Translations under genes and position numbers: made by a program
Part shown: positions 1-8,669 of the stretch, in pieces
How the letters are laid out: each line of letters starts with the position of its first letter
Position numbering within the stretch: position 1 is the first letter of the stretch
DNA from: a candidate division FCPU426 bacterium
Lineage (GTDB): Bacteria > Oederibacteriota > Muellerivitia > Muellerivitales > Muellerivitaceae
Direction of reading: 5' to 3'
Length of the DNA stretch: 64,000 nt
Assembly: GCA_963796105.1 (NCBI GenBank)
Contig: CAWCKJ010000003.1
Span: 320,001 to 384,000 of the forward strand
Notes under the pieces: generated by a model
Told to the model about the DNA's origin: nothing
What the model saw: only the letters and a program-made list of their open reading frames with translations
Databases searched by the model: none

Positions 1-2067
1 AAAACCGGGAATCTGACCCAAAAGACTACTTTTGACCATAACACAATTACCTACGGTTACGATGGCCTAACTGATCGCTTGACGAGCGTTTCCAGCACGA
101 ACCGCAACGAGGCTTACCAATACGACAACCTGGGAAGAAGAACTCAGATGAACGTTAATAACTTGTTAACCACCTTCACCTATGATAGGCGCGACCGTCT
201 CTCCACCAAGACGGCCTATACTTCTTCTTCCTCGACCCTCTACGCCCTTTCATACGGCTACGACTCAGTGGGGAACGTGAACAGCATCCAGATGTCGAAC
301 GATTCAAATGGACCATCTGTTACTTACGACTACGACAGGGCCAACAAGTTGATCCATGTGAACGATAATCATCTTGGCACAACAGCCTACAGCTACGACA
401 ACTCCAACAACCTTCAAACCATGGGCTACACCAACGGGGTGACCCACACCTGGGGATATGACAACCGCAACCGCCTCACCAGCCTGACTGTGACGGGGCC
501 AAACTCGCCTGTGACCATAAACTCATATGGATATACCCTGAACGGGGCTGGGGCCAGGATCAACGTGGTGGAAGCCACCAGTCGCAAGATCAACTGGACC
601 TACGACAACCTCATGAGACTTACCGGTGAAAACATCACTTCCCTCAACATCCCCGACCCCACCGGACAGGTGAACTACGCCTACGACAATGTGGGGAACC
701 GCTTGAACCTGAACGGGAGCTTCGCGGCGGCAACGACCGTCATATCCAGCCAAAACTTCAATGGGTCATATGACACCAATGATAGGCTGACGGCGGGGTA
801 CACCTACTCCGACGGAGGGAACACGCTAACGGACCCGCAAGGAAACACCTACACCTACGACGCAGAAAACCACCTTATTTCCGTAACAGGTTCGAGCCTA
901 AATGCGATCTACGAATATGATGGCGACGGGAACCGCACCGCCAAAACCCTGAACGGAGTGAGAACAAACTACGTCGTGGATACGGTCAACCCCACAGGTT
1001 ACAGCCAGGTTCTGGCGGAAATCCAAAACGGCCAAGTTGTGAAGAGGTACACCTATGGGCATATGCTCATATCGCTGGAACAACCAGTCAACAGCTCATG
1101 GACAGCCAGTTATTACTGTTTGGACGGCCAGAACAGCGTGAGGAACCTGACGGATGCCAACGGCAATGTGACTGATTCGTACCAGTTTGACGCCTTTGGT
1201 AACATGATCGCCCAGACTCACGCAGGAACACCCACTCCCAACAATATGCGCGCTTTCGGGGAATACCAGGACAGTGACACCAACCTGATCTACTTGAGGG
1301 CCAGGTGGACAAACCCCGTCCTTGGCCGTTTCCAGACGATGGATGTGGATGAAGGTGACCTATATGACCCGATCTCTCTCCACAAATATCAGGCATTTTC
1401 TAATAACCCAATAAATAATGTCGATCCAAGTGGGAATGATGATTATTCAATTGGGACCAGTTATTTTAGTAGTGGTTTTAGCATTTCGAATACCGTTGGT
1501 TCTGCGGAAAGTAATTTATTACAGGGTGTATTTTCTGTACAAGTTGAATTGTTAGATCCGCCTAATTTTATTGATTTAAGACAACTTGTTGGAGTGATAT
1601 TTGCAGAGTCTCAAACAAGCGGATTGGGAGGTGATAATTTAGACGAACAAGAAGCCATAGGTTTGACTTTTGAAAATCGCGTGTATTACCGTCGAATGTA
1701 TCCAAGATATAACGGGGCTTTTGGAAATGGCACAATGATAAGTGCTATAAGAACAGGTTCTAAGGCATATGATCAACCGCGATGGAATTTGATCATGGCT
1801 AATAATGACTTAAAATATATGTACGAAATAGATTCTCTTTTAAAAACGCCTGGCGACAGAATACATTTTAATGATGCAGTAAATACTTCTTTTAGGGTTA
1901 ATCAAGAAAGTGTTCCGGCGGTCCAAATGACATTGGACAGCCAAGTACCTCCTGTAGCATTTAATAAATCCCCGAGTCAAACACCACCGAGTACCAGAAT
2001 GAGATATTTAGGATACTTAGGGTGTCATAATTTCTACGGATTTAAAGATAAAAGGTGGGTTCAATGA
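1..2067 (+). CDS. Rhs/YD-repeat polymorphic toxin (5' part outside window) with C-terminal SleB/Hydrolase_2-like cell wall hydrolase domain
   Basis: Frame is open from base 1. Many YD repeats, Rhs core 'LIYLRARW...GRF...NNPINNVDPSG'. C-terminal region (from 1435) is AT-richer and contains 'LVGVIFAES...EAIGLTFENRV...YLGCHNFY'. Confidence 0.9.
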   Translation, partial: KTGNLTQKTTFDHNTITYGYDGLTDRLTSVSSTNRNEAYQYDNLGRRTQMNVNNLLTTFTYDRRDRLSTKTAYTSSSSTLYALSYGYDSVGNVNSIQMSNDSNGPSVTYDYDRANKLIHVNDNHLGTTAYSYDNSNNLQTMGYTNGVTHTWGYDNRNRLTSLTVTGPNSPVTINSYGYTLNGAGARINVVEATSRKINWTYDNLMRLTGENITSLNIPDPTGQVNYAYDNVGNRLNLNGSFAAATTVISSQNFNGSYDTNDRLTAGYTYSDGGNTLTDPQGNTYTYDAENHLISVTGSSLNAIYEYDGDGNRTAKTLNGVRTNYVVDTVNPTGYSQVLAEIQNGQVVKRYTYGHMLISLEQPVNSSWTASYYCLDGQNSVRNLTDANGNVTDSYQFDAFGNMIAQTHAGTPTPNNMRAFGEYQDSDTNLIYLRARWTNPVLGRFQTMDVDEGDLYDPISLHKYQAFSNNPINNVDPSGNDDYSIGTSYFSSGFSISNTVGSAESNLLQGVFSVQVELLDPPNFIDLRQLVGVIFAESQTSGLGGDNLDEQEAIGLTFENRVYYRRMYPRYNGAFGNGTMISAIRTGSKAYDQPRWNLIMANNDLKYMYEIDSLLKTPGDRIHFNDAVNTSFRVNQESVPAVQMTLDSQVPPVAFNKSPSQTPPSTRMRYLGYLGCHNFYGFKDKRWVQ

Positions 2068-2906
2068 TAAAGAAATATTATTTTTTTATTCTACTTTTTG
2101 TTTTTGCCGCGCCCATGAAATGTCTTGCAGATAAACTTGATGGATTTCCTAATGAATCCGGAAGGGAAAAGGAACTCGCAACACTCGTTGGCGAGGCGTA
2201 CGTGTGGAATCATTATTGGTACAACGACTGGGGAAAAGATTTCGAAAAGGTTTTTAAAGTTGGCAGAAAAGAAAAAATTGGAGTTTGTTTGATCGATAAC
2301 AAGATGAAAGAGGAAAAAGGCTACGGCATTTTTTTTGATAAATTACCCGCCGAACTGTTTTTTTACAAACAGAATAACTCTTGGTACGCCCCGGATGTTA
2401 GTTGTGATTACATTGACGAGCGAACTTCGAAAAAACAAAATATAAAAGATTATATTGATTTTAAGGCCAAGCAATCAGCCCCGATCAAAGAATTCAGCGT
2501 TTTTTTCGACAAGGAAGTTTTGAATGTTCTGAATTTCGGCCCTTTCAATGGGGAAAAACGGAAGTTTGTGAAGGAAATATTTTTGGATAGGATTTTAAAA
2601 GGCAGCGACCTTGAATTTATCCAAAAGAACGAAGAAAACTCGAAGAAAGGCATCTTGATCAAGGTTGGAAATTTTAATTTCAATTACCCTATTTTTTATT
2701 ATTACGTCGAAGGTTTAAATGACGACGAAGGCATTCCCTATCTTGGTTTTGTCAATTTTGATACTGAAACCCGTAAAGTATTTCAGGACGATTTAATTAG
2801 CGGTGAAGTACAACCGATTAAAAGAAAATACAAAAACGCATTAAAACGCATTGACCAAACAGGACTGACACTCAGATATATGAATGGACGGTTCGAGGAT
2901 GATTAA
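2064..2906 (+). CDS. Putative exported immunity protein for Rhs toxin 1
   Basis: ATGA overlap with the toxin stop codon. Signal-peptide-like N-terminus MIKKYYFFILLFVFAAPMKCLA. AT-rich. Function inferred from position only. Confidence 0.65.
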   Translation: MIKKYYFFILLFVFAAPMKCLADKLDGFPNESGREKELATLVGEAYVWNHYWYNDWGKDFEKVFKVGRKEKIGVCLIDNKMKEEKGYGIFFDKLPAELFFYKQNNSWYAPDVSCDYIDERTSKKQNIKDYIDFKAKQSAPIKEFSVFFDKEVLNVLNFGPFNGEKRKFVKEIFLDRILKGSDLEFIQKNEENSKKGILIKVGNFNFNYPIFYYYVEGLNDDEGIPYLGFVNFDTETRKVFQDDLISGEVQPIKRKYKNALKRIDQTGLTLRYMNGRFEDD

Positions 2907-2909
2907 AAA

Positions 2910-3254
2910 ATGGAAAATATGAAACGTTTAGTATTTGTTTTGATCCTGATGATGGCCCAAGGTGTGGTCTTTGGTGCAGCCCAGCCCAACCCCATCAACA
3001 CCCAGATCAAGCGAACACCCATGGACAGGGTTGTGATCCGTCTCCGTCAGCAGAATATCCAAATCCAGCGGGATTTACGAGCGGGGAAGCTGACCAAGGA
3101 CCAAGCTAAGACCCTGAAGGTTCAGGTAGAGACCATCCGCTAACAACAGATAACTTTTTTGAAGCAGAACGGCACCAAGACGCTGACTGATGCCCAGGTA
3201 GCGCAGTTGAACGGGCAGTTGAACGCCCTTTCGAAGTCGATTCCTATTAGGTAA
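2910..3254 (+). pseudogene. Small secreted helical protein A, copy 1, interrupted by in-frame TAA at 3141-3143
   Basis: Frame continues after the TAA with QQITFLKQNGTKTLTDAQVAQLNGQLNALSKSIPIR*, nearly identical to intact copy 2 (6066-6416), which has AAA (Lys) at that codon. Confidence 0.8.
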
Positions 3255-3285
3255 CAATCAATTTATTTTAAAAAAGGAGGCAGTT

Positions 3286-3648
3286 ATGAAGCGTTTAATT
3301 TTGGTCGCTGTGGCGGCGATAATCACAATGGGGGTAAGCCTGGCCCAGGCGACAACGTCCGCGCCGACGCCGGGACCCAAGGCTGTTTCTGCTCCCAAAG
3401 CGGTCGTGACGCCTAACCCCGCTTTGAAGAACATAAATATAAAGATGATGGAGCAAATGCGGGATATCGCCAAGGCCCAGCACTCAGGGAAAATTACGAA
3501 AGACCAGGCCAAGGGCTTGCGGGACAAGGTGAAGTCCATCCGTAAGCAACAACTGGACTTCATGAAGGCCAACGGGAAGAAGGCCATGACTCCTGACCAG
3601 GAGAGCCAAATCAACCAGGCCCTCGACGAGAACGCTATGGCTCTGTAA
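3286..3648 (+). CDS. Small secreted helical protein B, copy 1
   Basis: AAGGAGG RBS, signal peptide ending SLAQA, Pro/Thr linker; near-identical paralogue at 6460-6846. Confidence 0.85.
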   Translation: MKRLILVAVAAIITMGVSLAQATTSAPTPGPKAVSAPKAVVTPNPALKNINIKMMEQMRDIAKAQHSGKITKDQAKGLRDKVKSIRKQQLDFMKANGKKAMTPDQESQINQALDENAMAL

Positions 3649-3762
3649 AAACCCAATTTAGAAAATAGGCCAGATGAAGCAGTATTTAGGACGTACCTAT
3701 GATTACGACGCGGAAGCGGAAAAAGGCTAGTAAAGATCAGAATGACAATTTAGGGCCAACTG

Positions 3763-3807
3763 AACCCCGTAGAGGCGGCACAACGCTTTTACGGGGTTTT
3801 TCTTTTT
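3763..3807 (+). terminator. Intrinsic terminator closing module 1
   Basis: Stem AACCCCGTAGAGGCG / CGCTTTTACGGGGTT (with G:U pairs), 6-nt loop, followed by a T-rich tract. Confidence 0.8.
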
Positions 3808-3823
3808 CATCTGATCAACTTGT

Positions 3824-5489
3824 CAGGGCCAACAAGTTGATCAGAACCAATGATAATCATCTTGGCACAACAGCCTACAGCTACGACAACTCCAACAACC
3901 TTCAAACCATGGGCTACACCAACGGGGTGACCCACACCTGGGGATATGACAACCGCAACCGCCTCACCAACCTGACGGTGACAGGTCCAAACTCGCCTGT
4001 GACCATAAACTCATATGGATATACCCTGAACGGGGCTGGGGCGAGGACCAACGTGGTGGAAGCCACCAGCCGCAAGATCAACTGGACCTACGACAACCTG
4101 ATGAGACTTACCGGTGAAAACATCACTTCCCTCAACATCCCTGACCCCACTGGTGGTGTCACTTATACCTACGACAGCGTGGGGAACCGATTGAACCTGA
4201 ATGGCAATCTTGCGGCGGCAACGACCGTCATATCCAGCCAAAACTTCAATGGAGCATATGACACCAATGATAGGCTGACGGCGGGGTACACCTACTCTGA
4301 TGGCGGAAACACACTGACCGATCAAAGTAACAACAGTTACACCTACGACGCCGAAAACCACCTTGTTTCTGTAGCAATTCCTAACTCCTCACTCTTACCT
4401 ACTAACTCGACTGTGTCGTACGAGTACGACGGAGATGGGAATCGCACTGCCAAGATTCTGAACGGCGTGAGGACAGATTACGTGGTAGATACAGTAAATC
4501 CAACCGGTTACAGCCAAGTCCTCGCTGAAATTCAGAACGGCCAAGTTGTGAAGAGGTTCACCTTCGGCCACATGCTGATATCGCAGGAAGCCTCGAATGG
4601 TTCTTCGTTTGTTGTCAGCTACTACTGTTTGGACGGCCAGAACAGCGTGAGGAACCTGACGGATGCCAACGGCAATGTGACAGATTCGTTCCAATTCGAT
4701 GCGTATGGAAATTTGCTCTACAGCAACGGAACAACCAACAACGATTATTTATATAACGGGGAAAGGATGGACCATGAGACTGGGAACTATTATCTGAGAG
4801 CAAGGTATATGAACCCGGCGATTGGGAGATTTACGGGGATGGATAGCTTTGAGGGTGACAGCCAGGACCCAATTAGCCTACATAAGTATGAATTTGTGGC
4901 CAACAATCCAGTAAATTTAACCGATCCGGATGGGCATGAATTTGATATTTGTAGTTTAGCAATGTCAGCAGCAATTGTCGGAATTTTGGCTACGTTTCCC
5001 AGTGTTTCTGAAGCTGGTACTGCCAAAGAAGCTAATATTATTGTGTTAATAACAGATTTTAATAATGCTTCAGTGGATACGGGAATTAATGTAAATGTTT
5101 TAGGCTCTTTGGGTTGGTCAGAAAGTGCAAATGGTGCGCTAGGTTATTGGGACAGAAATACGCACAACAGCCCGAACGCGCACGGAATAATGCAATTGTG
5201 GGGACCTGAAAATGAGGGGCTAAGTGATGCCGATAACATTGAAAAAGGTGCAAAAATCCTTAAGGAAAAAGTCAATGACGCGAAGAAAATTAAACACAAA
5301 CTATACGGACAAAGTCTAACTCCCGCCCAATTAGCAGATTCTTGGTTTATACCTATAGCGCTTTATAAAGCGAGCTTAAAAAACGCAAGTACATGGGAAA
5401 ACCAAATTTATTCTTCTTGGCCAAATGTAGAGGGTACTTTTAAAACTCCCACTTTATTAAGAACACTTTGGGCACAAAACGCAAAATAA
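3824..5489 (+). CDS. Orphan (5'-truncated) Rhs core with C-terminal SLT-like lytic transglycosylase toxin domain
   Basis: Identity to Rhs1 begins abruptly at 3824 (= base 336). Core ends NNPVNLTDPDG. C-terminal domain has 'WSES', 'AHGIMQL', 'NIEKGAKIL', 'IALY'. The ORF-track start at 3699 runs through a terminator and is probably not genuine. Confidence 0.85.
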
Positions 5490-5514
5490 ATGAATGGGTA
5501 AAAGGAGAGATTTT

Positions 5515-6054
5515 ATGAACTGGTTAAAGAAATTGAGTTTAGTGATTATGATTTTCTTAACATCAGGAACATCTTTATTTGCCGTATCACAAGACAAAAT
5601 CAATGTTTTTCTTCAAGAGTTTATCGATGGTAAACCCACTGACGAATTTATTCATTTTTCATTAATTATTTATTCAATGTCTGAAAAAGAAAGCGGAAAG
5701 TGGTTGCTTACTGAAGAAACATTCTCAAATATAAAAGATCAAAAGTTTACAACTTTAAATTTAATTCAATCTCGTTCAAATGATGATTATGACACACCGC
5801 TACTTAGTGATGTCGTTTGGACCCCTGGCAAAGAATTGAAGTGCACTTATATGCCATTTAGAGGAATGGATATTAAGTTGAAAGCGGAAAAAAGGCGTAC
5901 CGGTAAATATGATTGGGATGTTTATTGTGTAGGTTCATACAAGTTGACAGCTAACGATAAAACCCATAAATGGGAATTTAAAAGCACACGAGAACAAACA
6001 CTCGAATTTAATAAGCTTCAATTTCAGAGTTTATATTACAGAAAAGATAAGTGA
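5515..6054 (+). CDS. Putative exported immunity protein for Rhs toxin 2
   Basis: AAGGAG RBS before ATG 5515. Signal peptide MNWLKKLSLVIMIFLTSGTSLFA. AT-rich, directly after the toxin, no evident similarity to immunity 1. Confidence 0.65.
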   Translation: MNWLKKLSLVIMIFLTSGTSLFAVSQDKINVFLQEFIDGKPTDEFIHFSLIIYSMSEKESGKWLLTEETFSNIKDQKFTTLNLIQSRSNDDYDTPLLSDVVWTPGKELKCTYMPFRGMDIKLKAEKRRTGKYDWDVYCVGSYKLTANDKTHKWEFKSTREQTLEFNKLQFQSLYYRKDK

Positions 6055-6065
6055 TTGGTTTTAAA

Positions 6066-6416
6066 ATGAAAAAGCGTTTTATAAAATTCATCGTTTTCTT
6101 CTGTGCTTTATTCATGAACCAAAGCATGATCTTTGCCTTGCCCCAACCCACACCTGTCAACGTTCATATTCAACGTTCTCCAATGGAAAAAGTTGTCATC
6201 CGTTTACGCCAGCAGAACATCCAAATCCAACGGGATTTGAGGGCAGGCAAGCTGACCAAGGACCAGGCCAAGTCCCTCAAGGCCCAGGTGGAAACCATTC
6301 GAAAACAGGAAATCACCTTCCTAAAACAGAACGGCACCAAGACTTTGACCGATGCCCAGGTGGTGCAATTGAACGGGCAGTTGAATGCCCTTTCGAAGTC
6401 GATTCCTATTAGATGA
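6066..6416 (+). CDS. Small secreted helical protein A, copy 2 (intact)
   Basis: Signal peptide, then IQRDLRAGKLTKDQAK...NGTKTLTDAQ; paralogue of 2910-3254. Confidence 0.85.
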   Translation: MKKRFIKFIVFFCALFMNQSMIFALPQPTPVNVHIQRSPMEKVVIRLRQQNIQIQRDLRAGKLTKDQAKSLKAQVETIRKQEITFLKQNGTKTLTDAQVVQLNGQLNALSKSIPIR

Positions 6417-6459
6417 CTAATAGTTTATTTCGAAAATATTTTAAAAAAGGAGGCGGTTT

Positions 6460-6846
6460 ATGAAACGTTTTATTTTAGTTGCTGTGACGGCGATTATCAC
6501 GATGGGGGTAAGCCTGGCCCAGGCGGCAACGACCGCACCGACGCCTGGCACCAAGGCGGTGGCACCAATGCCGACTAGGGTTGCGTTACCCAAGGGGGTT
6601 GTGACGCCTAACCCCGCTTTGAAGAATATTAATATAAAGATGATGGAGCAAATGCGGGACATCGCCAAGGCCCAGCACTCAGGCAAAATCACGAAGGACC
6701 AGGCCAAGGTCTTGCGGGACAAGGTGAAATCCATTCGCAAGCAACAACTGGACTTCATGAAAGCCAATGGGAAGAAGGCCATGACTCCGGACCAGGAGAG
6801 CCAAATTAACCAGGCCCTCGACGCCAACGCCAAGACGCTCCAATAA
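6460..6846 (+). CDS. Small secreted helical protein B, copy 2
   Basis: AAGGAGG RBS, signal peptide; mature part almost identical to 3286-3648. Confidence 0.85.
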   Translation: MKRFILVAVTAIITMGVSLAQAATTAPTPGTKAVAPMPTRVALPKGVVTPNPALKNINIKMMEQMRDIAKAQHSGKITKDQAKVLRDKVKSIRKQQLDFMKANGKKAMTPDQESQINQALDANAKTLQ

Positions 6847-6905
6847 ACAAGTAGGGAATTGCGTTTCATCCATGTGAAGGTGTCTAGATATGCCTAAACA
6901 CACTC

Positions 6906-6937
6906 AAGGCTGGGGTTTCTCCCAGCCCTTTTCTTTT
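6906..6937 (+). terminator. Intrinsic terminator closing module 2
   Basis: GGCTGGG-N6-CCCAGCC followed by CTTTTCTTTT. Confidence 0.75.
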
Positions 6938-7015
6938 CTCGCCGATTCTTCAATTCCTAATTCAACATTCAAAATTCCTAATTCGGGCGGTATTCCCTTG
7001 GAATCCGCCCGTTGT

Positions 7016-7646
7016 GACCGTCTCTCCACCAAGACGGCCTATACTGCTTCCTCCTCGACCCTCTACGCCCTTTCATATGGCTACGACTCAGTGGGGAACG
7101 TGAACAGCATCCAGATGTCGAACGATTCAAATGGACCATCTGTTACTTACGACTACGACAGGGCCAACAAGTTGATCAGAACCAACGATAATCATCTTGG
7201 CACAACAGCCTACGGATACGACAACTCCAACAACCTTCAATCCATGGGCTACACCAACGGGGTGACCCACACCTGGGGATACGACAAACGCAACCGCCTC
7301 ACCAGCCTAACGGTGACGGGGCCAAACTCGCCTGTGACCATAAACTCATATGGATATACCCTGAACGGGGCTGGGGTGAGGACCAACGTGGTGGAAGCCA
7401 CCAGCCGCAAGATCAACTGGACCTACGACAACCTCATGAGACTTACCGGTGAAAACATCACTTCCCTCAACATCCCCGACCCGACAGGACAGGTGAACTA
7501 CGCCTATGACAGCGTGGGAAACCGCTTGAATCTGAACGGAAGCCTTGCGGCGGCCATGACCGTCATATCCAGCCAAAACTTCAATGGGGCATATGACGCC
7601 AACGACCGCTTGACGGTGGGGCACACCTACTCAGATGGAGGGAACA
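7016..7646 (+). pseudogene. Rhs core fragment lacking both the N-terminus and the C-terminal toxin
   Basis: Near-identical to bases 193-822. Similarity starts and stops abruptly; no DPxG motif follows. Confidence 0.85.
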
Positions 7647-7785: not shown

Positions 7786-7983
7786 ATGAAAATCACAACC
7801 CATATCGACGAAGATCTTTTAAAACGGGCAAAACAAAAAACAGGAATTGTCTCTCAAAGGGAAGTCCTGGAAACTGGATTACGCAACTTATTGGCGGACA
7901 TTCAAAGAAAAAGTTTCGTGAAGGATTTCGATAAGTTTCGCCTCGATCTAACGATCAAGCAACTCAAAGAGTCCAGAAATTGA
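7786..7983 (+). CDS. vapB: Type II antitoxin, VapB family
   Basis: MKITTHIDEDLLKRAK...REVLETGLRNLL pattern; GGAGG RBS; overlaps a PIN-domain gene. Confidence 0.8.
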   Translation: MKITTHIDEDLLKRAKQKTGIVSQREVLETGLRNLLADIQRKSFVKDFDKFRLDLTIKQLKESRN

Positions 7984-8414
7984 ACCAACTTTTCCTGATT
8001 GACAGTTCAGCGTGGATTTTCGCATTAGGTCCACGACCTGTGGAGGCTATACGTGAAAGGGTTGAAAAGTTAGTGAAAAACAACCTTGCGGCTATTACCT
8101 CGCCGATATTCTTCGAACTTGTTTCCTCTGAAAAAAACCAAACTCATTCGGCCTTATTAGCGGCCCATTTATCGGCGCTTCACCCTTTCCCCTTATTGCC
8201 CCAGGAATGGGCAGAGGCTGCCGAGTGGACGAGGGCACATCGTCAAAAGGGTCATAAATTAAAAACTATTGATGCATTGATTGCCTATAAATCGCTCAAA
8301 CACAATCTGACCCTAGTTCACGCCGACGCGGATATGGATAGAATTGCCGACCATACCAAATTGAATGTTGAAAGCTATGTTCGGCATGTTCGCTCAGTTC
8401 ACGGAAGCAATTAA
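7980..8414 (+). CDS. vapC: PIN-domain ribonuclease toxin
   Basis: LIDSSAWI, FELV, IDALIA, LVHADADM acidic PIN motifs. Confidence 0.9.
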   Translation: MNQLFLIDSSAWIFALGPRPVEAIRERVEKLVKNNLAAITSPIFFELVSSEKNQTHSALLAAHLSALHPFPLLPQEWAEAAEWTRAHRQKGHKLKTIDALIAYKSLKHNLTLVHADADMDRIADHTKLNVESYVRHVRSVHGSN

Positions 8415-8435
8415 ATTTGATGATGGGAGTTGTGA

Positions 8436-8669
8436 ATGCGCGCAACTATTAATATCGAAAAAGGTGTGATGGAAAATCTGATGAAATATACAAAATCCAA
8501 GACCCGCGCCGAAGCGGTCAATCGCGCTTTGACGGATTGGGTCCAGCATCTAAAACTCATGAAACTGCGAGCTCTTCGTGGAAAGCTTCATTTAGAAAAC
8601 AATTGGAAAATGCTCCGTTCCCTTGAAAAGCGGGAATTTCGATCAACATTTGCCCAACGTCCTCGTTGA
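8436..8669 (+). CDS. vapB: Second VapB-family antitoxin (orphan)
   Basis: MRATINIE...TRAEAVNRAL...LRALRGKL pattern. Confidence 0.75.
   Translation: MRATINIEKGVMENLMKYTKSKTRAEAVNRALTDWVQHLKLMKLRALRGKLHLENNWKMLRSLEKREFRSTFAQRPR

Follow-up and report, generated by a model that had tools for sequence, protein, structure and literature searches.

A small exported protein gene recurs behind the toxin tip and immunity gene of Rhs modules in the Muellerivitaceae

An array of Rhs toxin genes in an uncultured bacterium of the family Muellerivitaceae raises the question of why two small genes for exported proteins, termed here A and B, are repeated behind toxin tips and immunity genes that differ completely from one unit to the next. 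The array lies at the start of a 64-kb stretch of DNA (the window, G000:C3:320001-384000, where G000 is the host genome and C3 one of its contigs; other G numbers denote other genomes compared and L numbers individual extracted loci), and all features described in it are on the + strand. The unit that recurs in the bacterial family consists of an Rhs core with its C-terminal toxin tip (CT), an immunity gene and A; B is a local fourth paralogue. The reading favored here, to which a probability of roughly 55% is assigned, is that A (with B) is a toxin-independent exported helper of giant Rhs proteins as well as a conserved 3′ flank, and that the orphan array arose by C-terminal displacement.

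Two divergent units and a recurring gene order

An earlier note on this DNA described a unit of Rhs core and tip, signal-peptide gene, A, B and terminator, and this order is indeed present twice. In unit 1, the Rhs/YD core (1..1434; RHS_repeat E 3e-23, Rhs_assc_core) ends in a DPSG motif and is followed by the tip CT1 (1435..2067), by I1 (2064..2906), which encodes a 280-residue signal-peptide protein and overlaps the CT1 stop, by the A-clade gene A1 (2919..3254), by B1 (3286..3648; 120 residues) and by an intrinsic-terminator-like hairpin with a 16-bp stem (3762..3799). Unit 2 comprises a core fragment ending in DPDG (3824..4934), CT2 (4935..5489), I2 (5515..6054; a 179-residue signal-peptide protein), an intact A2 (6066..6416; 116 residues), B2 (6460..6846; 128 residues) and a second terminator-like hairpin (6908..6927). 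The third core that the note had seen is confirmed at 7016..7646; it is a truncated fragment, 93% identical to 193-823, that lacks a tip and leads on to vapB-vapC-vapB′ (7786..8669; the second vapB-like gene last), neighbors outside the module that close the array. Inspection and hydropathy showed that all six small genes (I1, A1, B1, I2, A2 and B2) begin with a basic-hydrophobic, signal-like stretch. Scans of the region for promoters and terminators gave no excess over shuffled sequence (terminators, 9 versus 10.9).

The N-terminal export part of the Rhs protein, which had been expected upstream of the window, was not found there. The open reading frame (ORF) of unit 1 starts 1,187 nucleotides (nt) upstream of the window, encodes 1,084 residues and ends at 2067, and since it has no N-terminal export region, this first Rhs is an orphan too. 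Giants with signal peptides do occur in relatives, as described below.

As the note had stated, the tip and immunity genes of the two units show no cross-match, and the core, A and B are conserved. Shared parts of the units and cores are 81-93% identical: the cores of units 1 and 2 agree at 84% over 894 nt and the A-B blocks at 81% over 689 nt, and neither the terminators nor the stretches joining each unit to the core behind it are alike. The tip and immunity genes form AT-rich cassettes (G+C fraction 0.32-0.38) between core, A and B sequences of 0.46-0.55, such that low-G+C cassettes sit between flanks of host composition. At synonymous sites, A1 is nearer to a copy in G001 (dS 0.56) than to its neighbor A2 (dS 1.6). 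A stretch of CT2, I2 and the start of A recurs in another genus (G075:C3; 70% nucleotide identity over 1,250 nt, ending at a poly-T assembly defect), and tandem repeats of tip, immunity gene and A are also present in G011, G019 and G022. The reading frame of A1 is interrupted by a TAA at 3141-3143, aligned with AAA in A2; either unit 1 carries a broken A or the assembly is in error at this codon, and the two public DNA runs cover only short pieces of the region, none across the A1 stop.

At E 1e-12, a profile of A matched 23 of the 30 other genomes of the family and none of the 68 other genomes of the phylum; weaker relatives do occur outside, one of them at 6.5e-7. Among the best 22 A matches in the 99 phylum genomes (E 1.5e-27 or better, four from G000), 19 lie behind an Rhs tip within ∼3.5 kb; of the other three, two are unlinked and one has a lipoprotein gene on one side and a core on the other. 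Rhs-tip-linked A recurs in six genera. In G073 and G075, which were examined after the pattern was set, five of the six A-type matches retrieved stand behind a tip and the sixth behind a lone I2 homologue. When the modules of this Rhs clade in the bacterial family were scored, a gene of the A/B protein family was found behind 19 of 25, the misses being G017 (3), G013:C19, G019:C97 and G073:C134; three further modules were dropped as unscorable (cut by an insertion sequence (IS), at a contig end, or with a truncated core). Eleven metagenome loci included four with Rhs, tip, immunity gene and A (three of them one element), six too short for a core and one belonging to the tail-linked clade described below.

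By contrast, B-type genes were found among 26 genomes only in G000 and, broken, in G001 of the same genus, and in G006:C26 two other paralogues stand in tandem behind an Rhs. The five modules of G000 that bear a family gene are mixed: two with A and B, two with A only and one with B only. The idea of an expanded polymorphic-toxin module with constant accessory parts therefore holds for the small exported A, which recurs in relatives and is mostly Rhs-linked, but not for B, and the four-gene unit is not constant.

Other host loci illustrate this mixture. At C3:736 kb, an IS-split signal-peptide Rhs with a GH24 tip is followed by an immunity gene and A; at C4:1474 kb, a GH24 tip is followed by a lipoprotein gene, an IS and A; and at C3:502 kb, an immunity-like gene, B and a terminator precede a core with an IS-cut NlpC/P60-like tip. 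The B gene at C3:502 kb is B1-like over most of its length and B2-like from its 3′ end through the terminator and core, a recombinant mosaic, which shows that crossover has taken place within the gene. The search of G000 turned up no intact Rhs of this clade. An IS-cut ORF of 932 residues with a signal peptide (G000:C3:512637-509839) resembles the N-terminal part of the giant Rhs relatives, and may be the lost parent of the array, split off by IS-driven inversion and deletion. A different fourth gene, for another small exported protein, follows A at L004:11342-11755 (G000:C4) and at L153:9984-10367 (G073:C86), and the N-termini of the two products are alike.

Toxin tips, immunity genes and giant Rhs parents

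Neither CT1 nor CT2 matched Pfam, NCBIfam or PHROGs. For CT2, ESM Atlas gave a value of 0.95 with SLT in 21 of 30 matches, a two-sequence profile matched EtgA (E 1e-4), and the predicted lysozyme-like fold carries a catalytic Glu (ES) and a GxMQ motif; its prediction as an SLT-type lytic transglycosylase tip is well supported. The CT1 model (pLDDT 43) was unusable, and fold, PDB, phage, hhalign and direct homologue searches were negative or unusable. CT1 homologues (E 1e-9 to 1e-13) are tips in G013, G017 and one metagenome, and a remnant in G073 (E 3e-5) links this chain to a tip that Pfam assigns to Hydrolase_2 (E 4e-6); the conserved Glu is present in four of the four close tips that have this region. 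By these indirect links, CT1 is likely a SleB/Hydrolase_2-type peptidoglycan lytic enzyme, and the label “cell-wall-lytic” that the note gave to both tips is well supported for CT2 and reaches CT1 through indirect links. Homologues of CT1 and I1 are adjacent in G017 (28 and 26%, respectively), there without A, and tip and immunity homologues are found together in five pairs, which argues that I1 and I2 are likely the cognate exported immunity proteins.

Tips were typed in 25 modules bearing a family gene (from the genomes and two metagenome elements), a set distinct from the 25 scorable Rhs-clade modules. Seventeen were peptidoglycan-type: three GH24, three SLT-type, one Hydrolase_2, one NlpC/P60, one Tlde1 (below cut-off), four of the CT1 group, two weak endolysin-like and two SleB-like by a motif only. 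Three more were unclassified with exported immunity, one was ambiguous and four had no exported immunity gene, the place of the latter being taken by a cytoplasmic or membrane protein gene or by none (G011, G073:C83, G006:C26 and G014). In G014 (L051:6867-7257), a 4,800-residue Rhs whose tip is helical has the family gene immediately behind it, with no immunity gene between. A tip family without a library match, with exported immunity, was observed in G016 and G022 (L042:8581, L046:7233 and L046:9771). Eleven modules without a family gene included GH24 tips three times and a CT1 homologue once, and wall-lytic tips without A occur in G017, G025, G019 and G073. Wall-lytic tips therefore dominate this Rhs clade whether A is present or not. 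The proposed specialization for peptidoglycan is borne out insofar as the majority of tips resemble peptidoglycan hydrolases and are paired with signal-peptide immunity proteins, but it does not extend to A, because A follows tips without exported immunity and wall-lytic tips exist without A.

Rhs proteins of the parental type are ∼2,900-4,800 residues long in relatives. Five scanned giants (2,940 to over 4,269 residues) combine NHL, malectin, DUF6531 and RHS with no PAAR, and the three Rhs front ends examined are hydrophobic and signal-like. As regards a type VI secretion system (T6SS), no match to PF05954 or PF05488 (VgrG and PAAR) was obtained in the 96.8% complete G000, and the controls matched. 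The envelope and export genes of G000 include BamA, LpxC, 16 PorV over cut-off and two secretins, and 72 of its ORFs, 46 of them over 1,000 residues, end in a FlgD-like tail; such tail-bearing genes lie just upstream in G019 and G000. PF14349 was silent in G000 and in the controls too. Together with a SprA-like ORF below cut-off, this gene content suggests a type IX secretion system (T9SS)-like machine with a large PorV expansion.

Properties of A and B and alternative roles

A and B are paralogues (32-37% identical). They are small and basic (pI 10-11; 11 for A2), are exported by signal-like N-termini and have mature parts without cysteine. The AlphaFold model of A2 consists of three helices (pLDDT 87.5) and retrieved only generic three-helix bundles in fold searches (best Z 9.1, root-mean-square deviation 2.7, 76 aligned; Foldseek best E 0.62); the A sequence had no match among PDB sequences. 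No family in Pfam, NCBIfam or PHROGs matched A or B over cut-off, and DUF2680 matched weakly in 26 of 112 members. Spy and CpxP (LTXXQ) are periplasmic chaperones, and A and B resemble them in being small, basic, helical and exported with LTxxQ-like helix caps. Unlike Spy and CpxP, A and B do not match PF07813, and neither chaperone is among the listed fold matches of the three-helix model; across the 112 members, LTXXQ is absent from the 25 most frequent Pfam matches and the Spy model matched one, weakly. A true Spy/CpxP (LTXXQ) gene lies at G000:C3:310847-311107, 9 kb upstream of the window.

Members of the A clade are 44% identical across the signal region but 78% identical once mature. The median ratio of nonsynonymous to synonymous divergence (dN/dS) is 0.11 for A (62 unsaturated of 78 pairs) and 0.09-0.10 for B (three pairs), and by this measure A is under purifying selection. 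The wider family comprises 3,161 clusters at 50% identity in a profile search, some with 2-11 tandem copies, and the 35 top multi-copy matches showed no informative Pfam domain. In a quick tree of 107 members with context labels set by hand, Rhs-linked copies fall mainly in one A group of 26 rows, 18 of them labeled Rhs (SH-aLRT 93, below the starred support level), and B falls apart from it. In other groups, 17 members lie directly behind giant NHL proteins bearing a FlgD-like tail, 5 follow TPR/outer-membrane-like genes and 10 are oriented head-to-head with giant proteins and immunity-like genes; the label “other” was given to 52 rows. Partner proteins of the tail-linked clade showed no wall hydrolase domain. 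Nine head-to-head giants were scanned: five carry SpoIID, M23 or GH18 at the N-terminus, and a sixth has a weak M23 match there. A candidate second toxin class (L056, L111, L153, L160, L162 and L085) consists of giant NHL/Kelch proteins with N-terminal SpoIID, M23 or GH18; in front of each stand between one and three immunity-like genes with signal peptides, together with a family gene in head-to-head orientation.

Two simple roles for A were rejected: an obligatory A-B heterodimer, since A and B each occur alone, and a partnership with every tail-bearing protein, since a family gene stands behind 1 of the 72 such ORFs in G000. A complex prediction of the Rhs core (876 residues) with A scored 0.00, which gives no verdict and is not used as evidence.

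The function of A is inferred. A parent operon of the form rhs-immunity-A(-B) would shed its 3′ end whenever a new tip recombined in, following the C-terminal displacement model of Rhs orphans (PMC2935791) and the related cassette logic (PMC3482391). Because A sits inside the operon, a displaced tip would carry off both A and the immunity gene, and every orphan would come with its own A; a double crossover using the conserved A/B flank could then replace a tip-immunity pair. The parent would leave the cytoplasm by Sec and then probably the cell by the T9SS-like machine; the Rhs shell would release the tip at the DPxG motif into the wall of a neighbor, and the immunity proteins would guard the producer's own periplasm. 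A would assist folding, export or display of a protein of 3,000-4,800 residues, much as BcpO does for BcpA. The array of the host, best read as a decaying orphan array, would now be mainly a store of immunity genes and spare tips, with A1 decayed.

Several observations weigh against this helper role. A is not essential, because the Rhs modules of G017 (3) and of G025 (another family, 5) have no family gene, and A also stands behind lone immunity-like genes without Rhs (G075:C4 and G001:C39). A family gene accompanies tail-bearing ORFs of G000 in just 1 of 72 cases. The counts overstate independence because the genomes are kin. The parallel with BcpO drawn from signal versus mature identity is weak because variable signal peptides are common. 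As to the export route, no Rhs scanned has a T9SS-type (FlgD-like) tail, a SprA-like ORF of 2,020 residues (C3:213-217 kb) matched below cut-off with the control silent, and the two secretins offer an alternative route.

A different explanation, which we consider doubtful, holds that A is unrelated to the toxin, was captured once behind an rhs operon and persists as passenger and homology arm, with B a second capture. The many unlinked paralogues (13 family ORFs in G000, in addition to the 3,161 clusters) and the visible crossover within B are as expected of such a passenger, as are the ∼8 linked copies that a stop, an IS element or a deletion has disrupted (A1; G001, two; G019; G073, two; G075; G005). 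However, the A clade is almost confined to Rhs loci, a homology arm has no need of a reading frame, and a dN/dS of ∼0.1 in the Rhs-linked copies, at synonymous distances that are saturated, requires selection on the protein.

Marginally more doubtful is a role for A and B in protecting the envelope at large, whether as periplasmic chaperones of the Spy kind or as basic shields of peptidoglycan, providing broad back-up immunity against wall-lytic toxins, a view close to that of the note. Small, basic, exported proteins would suit this role, and it gains from the 17 of 25 modules with peptidoglycan-type tips, from the separate clade that stands head-to-head with immunity-like genes and SpoIID/M23/GH18-headed giants (five clear and one weak of nine) and from the persistence of A beside lone immunity-like genes. 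Nevertheless, 4 of the 25 modules pair A with a cytoplasmic, a membrane or no immunity gene, wall-lytic tips do without A in four genomes, the partners of the tail-linked clade have no wall hydrolase domain, and the LTXXQ searches point away from Spy, the genome's own LTXXQ gene lying elsewhere. Finally, the two units can hardly be an assembly artefact or a one-off local duplication, which the earlier note had named as a refuting outcome: although the region is not spanned by public DNA reads, the parts common to both units diverge by 16-19% and their tip and immunity genes differ wholly, A1 and A2 have a dS of 1.6, and both the CT2-I2-A stretch and the tandem arrangement are found again in relatives, such that the repeat is real and not recent.

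A broader picture can be sketched tentatively, and it is possible rather than probable. The family would possess a distinct, T6SS-free antibacterial arsenal of teneurin-like giant Rhs proteins with mostly wall-lytic tips, delivered by Sec and a T9SS-like machine, whose export or self-protection would depend on a dedicated clade of a widespread exported three-helix domain; the domain would also serve the SpoIID/M23/GH18-headed toxin class as a general partner, and the gene would double as a recombination anchor for cassettes.

Mobile and repeated sequences adjoin the modules at several places. Where unit 2 gives way to the third core, 6951-7010 holds short AATTCCT-type repeats and a hairpin; the second core contains an inserted repeat of similar kind at 4375-4409, and a 74-nt copy lies behind the C4 module. 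Related rve-type IS elements separate either a full A from a truncated one or A from the immunity gene at L045:13802-15525, L153:10376-11976 and L157:14637-16150, a possible insertion hot spot in three genomes. Modules are often adjoined by an element that encodes two tyrosine integrases besides a primase-like gene and an XRE gene (L043, L048, L053, L124, L144, L147, L154 and L156), with a remnant at L002:7052-7522, and may be a mobilizer of the modules.

Comparison with known systems

The note knew of no description of this architecture, and literature searches, in which subscription journals were poorly covered, listed no paper about Rhs cassettes with an invariant third gene or about Rhs toxins of the NHL/malectin type. 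A published analogue in design exists nevertheless in the bcpAIOB contact-dependent growth inhibition (CDI) system of Burkholderia, where full killing requires BcpO, a small exported protein whose gene directly follows that for immunity and whose signal varies while its mature part stays constant (PMC3415462). BcpO is a lipoprotein of 73-74 residues in a two-partner system (PMC3415462), whereas A has no cysteine, is predicted to be a soluble three-helix protein and is repeated in orphan cassettes, and the locus has no TpsB gene; the likeness proposed is one of design. A small exported protein also partners a YD-repeat protein in Bdellovibrio, where Bd0108 binds its partner directly (PMC3818213). 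The Bd0108/Bd0109 pair is a single locus and not a toxin system, and its binding is shown (PMC3818213), whereas the partnership proposed here is inferred.

For the export route, a close comparison is with the TANFOR toxins of Bacteroidetes, polymorphic toxins that have signal peptides but no T9SS tail of their own and are encoded beside T9SS substrates (PMC7073777). The present modules share these traits but have no TANFOR match and differ in their Rhs shell, constant downstream gene and wall-lytic tips.

The Rhs orphan arrays already described are close to the present one as well. Two-gene orphans are described in a Stenotrophomonas module (10.64898/2026.07.13.738213) and in a survey of Rhs in plant pathogens, in the main text of which the words peptidoglycan and lysozyme are absent (10.1101/2025.05.08.652813). 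Like the published arrays (PMC2935791, PMC3482391, 10.1101/2025.05.08.652813), the present one has partial cores ending in DPxG with YD/RHS repeats, variable low-G+C tips, adjacent cognate immunity genes and tandem orphans; a full-length parent does not stand upstream. The host is uncultured, its copy of the array is decaying and the similar design of BcpO is already published for CDI. Even so, the findings offer the first hint of a function for a domain that spans about 3,000 nameless sequence clusters and point to wall-targeting Rhs toxins exported without a T6SS. Unlike the orphan arrays known so far from the texts cited, those described here have a Sec-type NHL/malectin giant without PAAR or VgrG as parent, mostly wall-lytic tips, mostly signal-peptide immunity and a third conserved exported gene, so that the toxin/immunity cassette of two genes becomes a conserved one of three.

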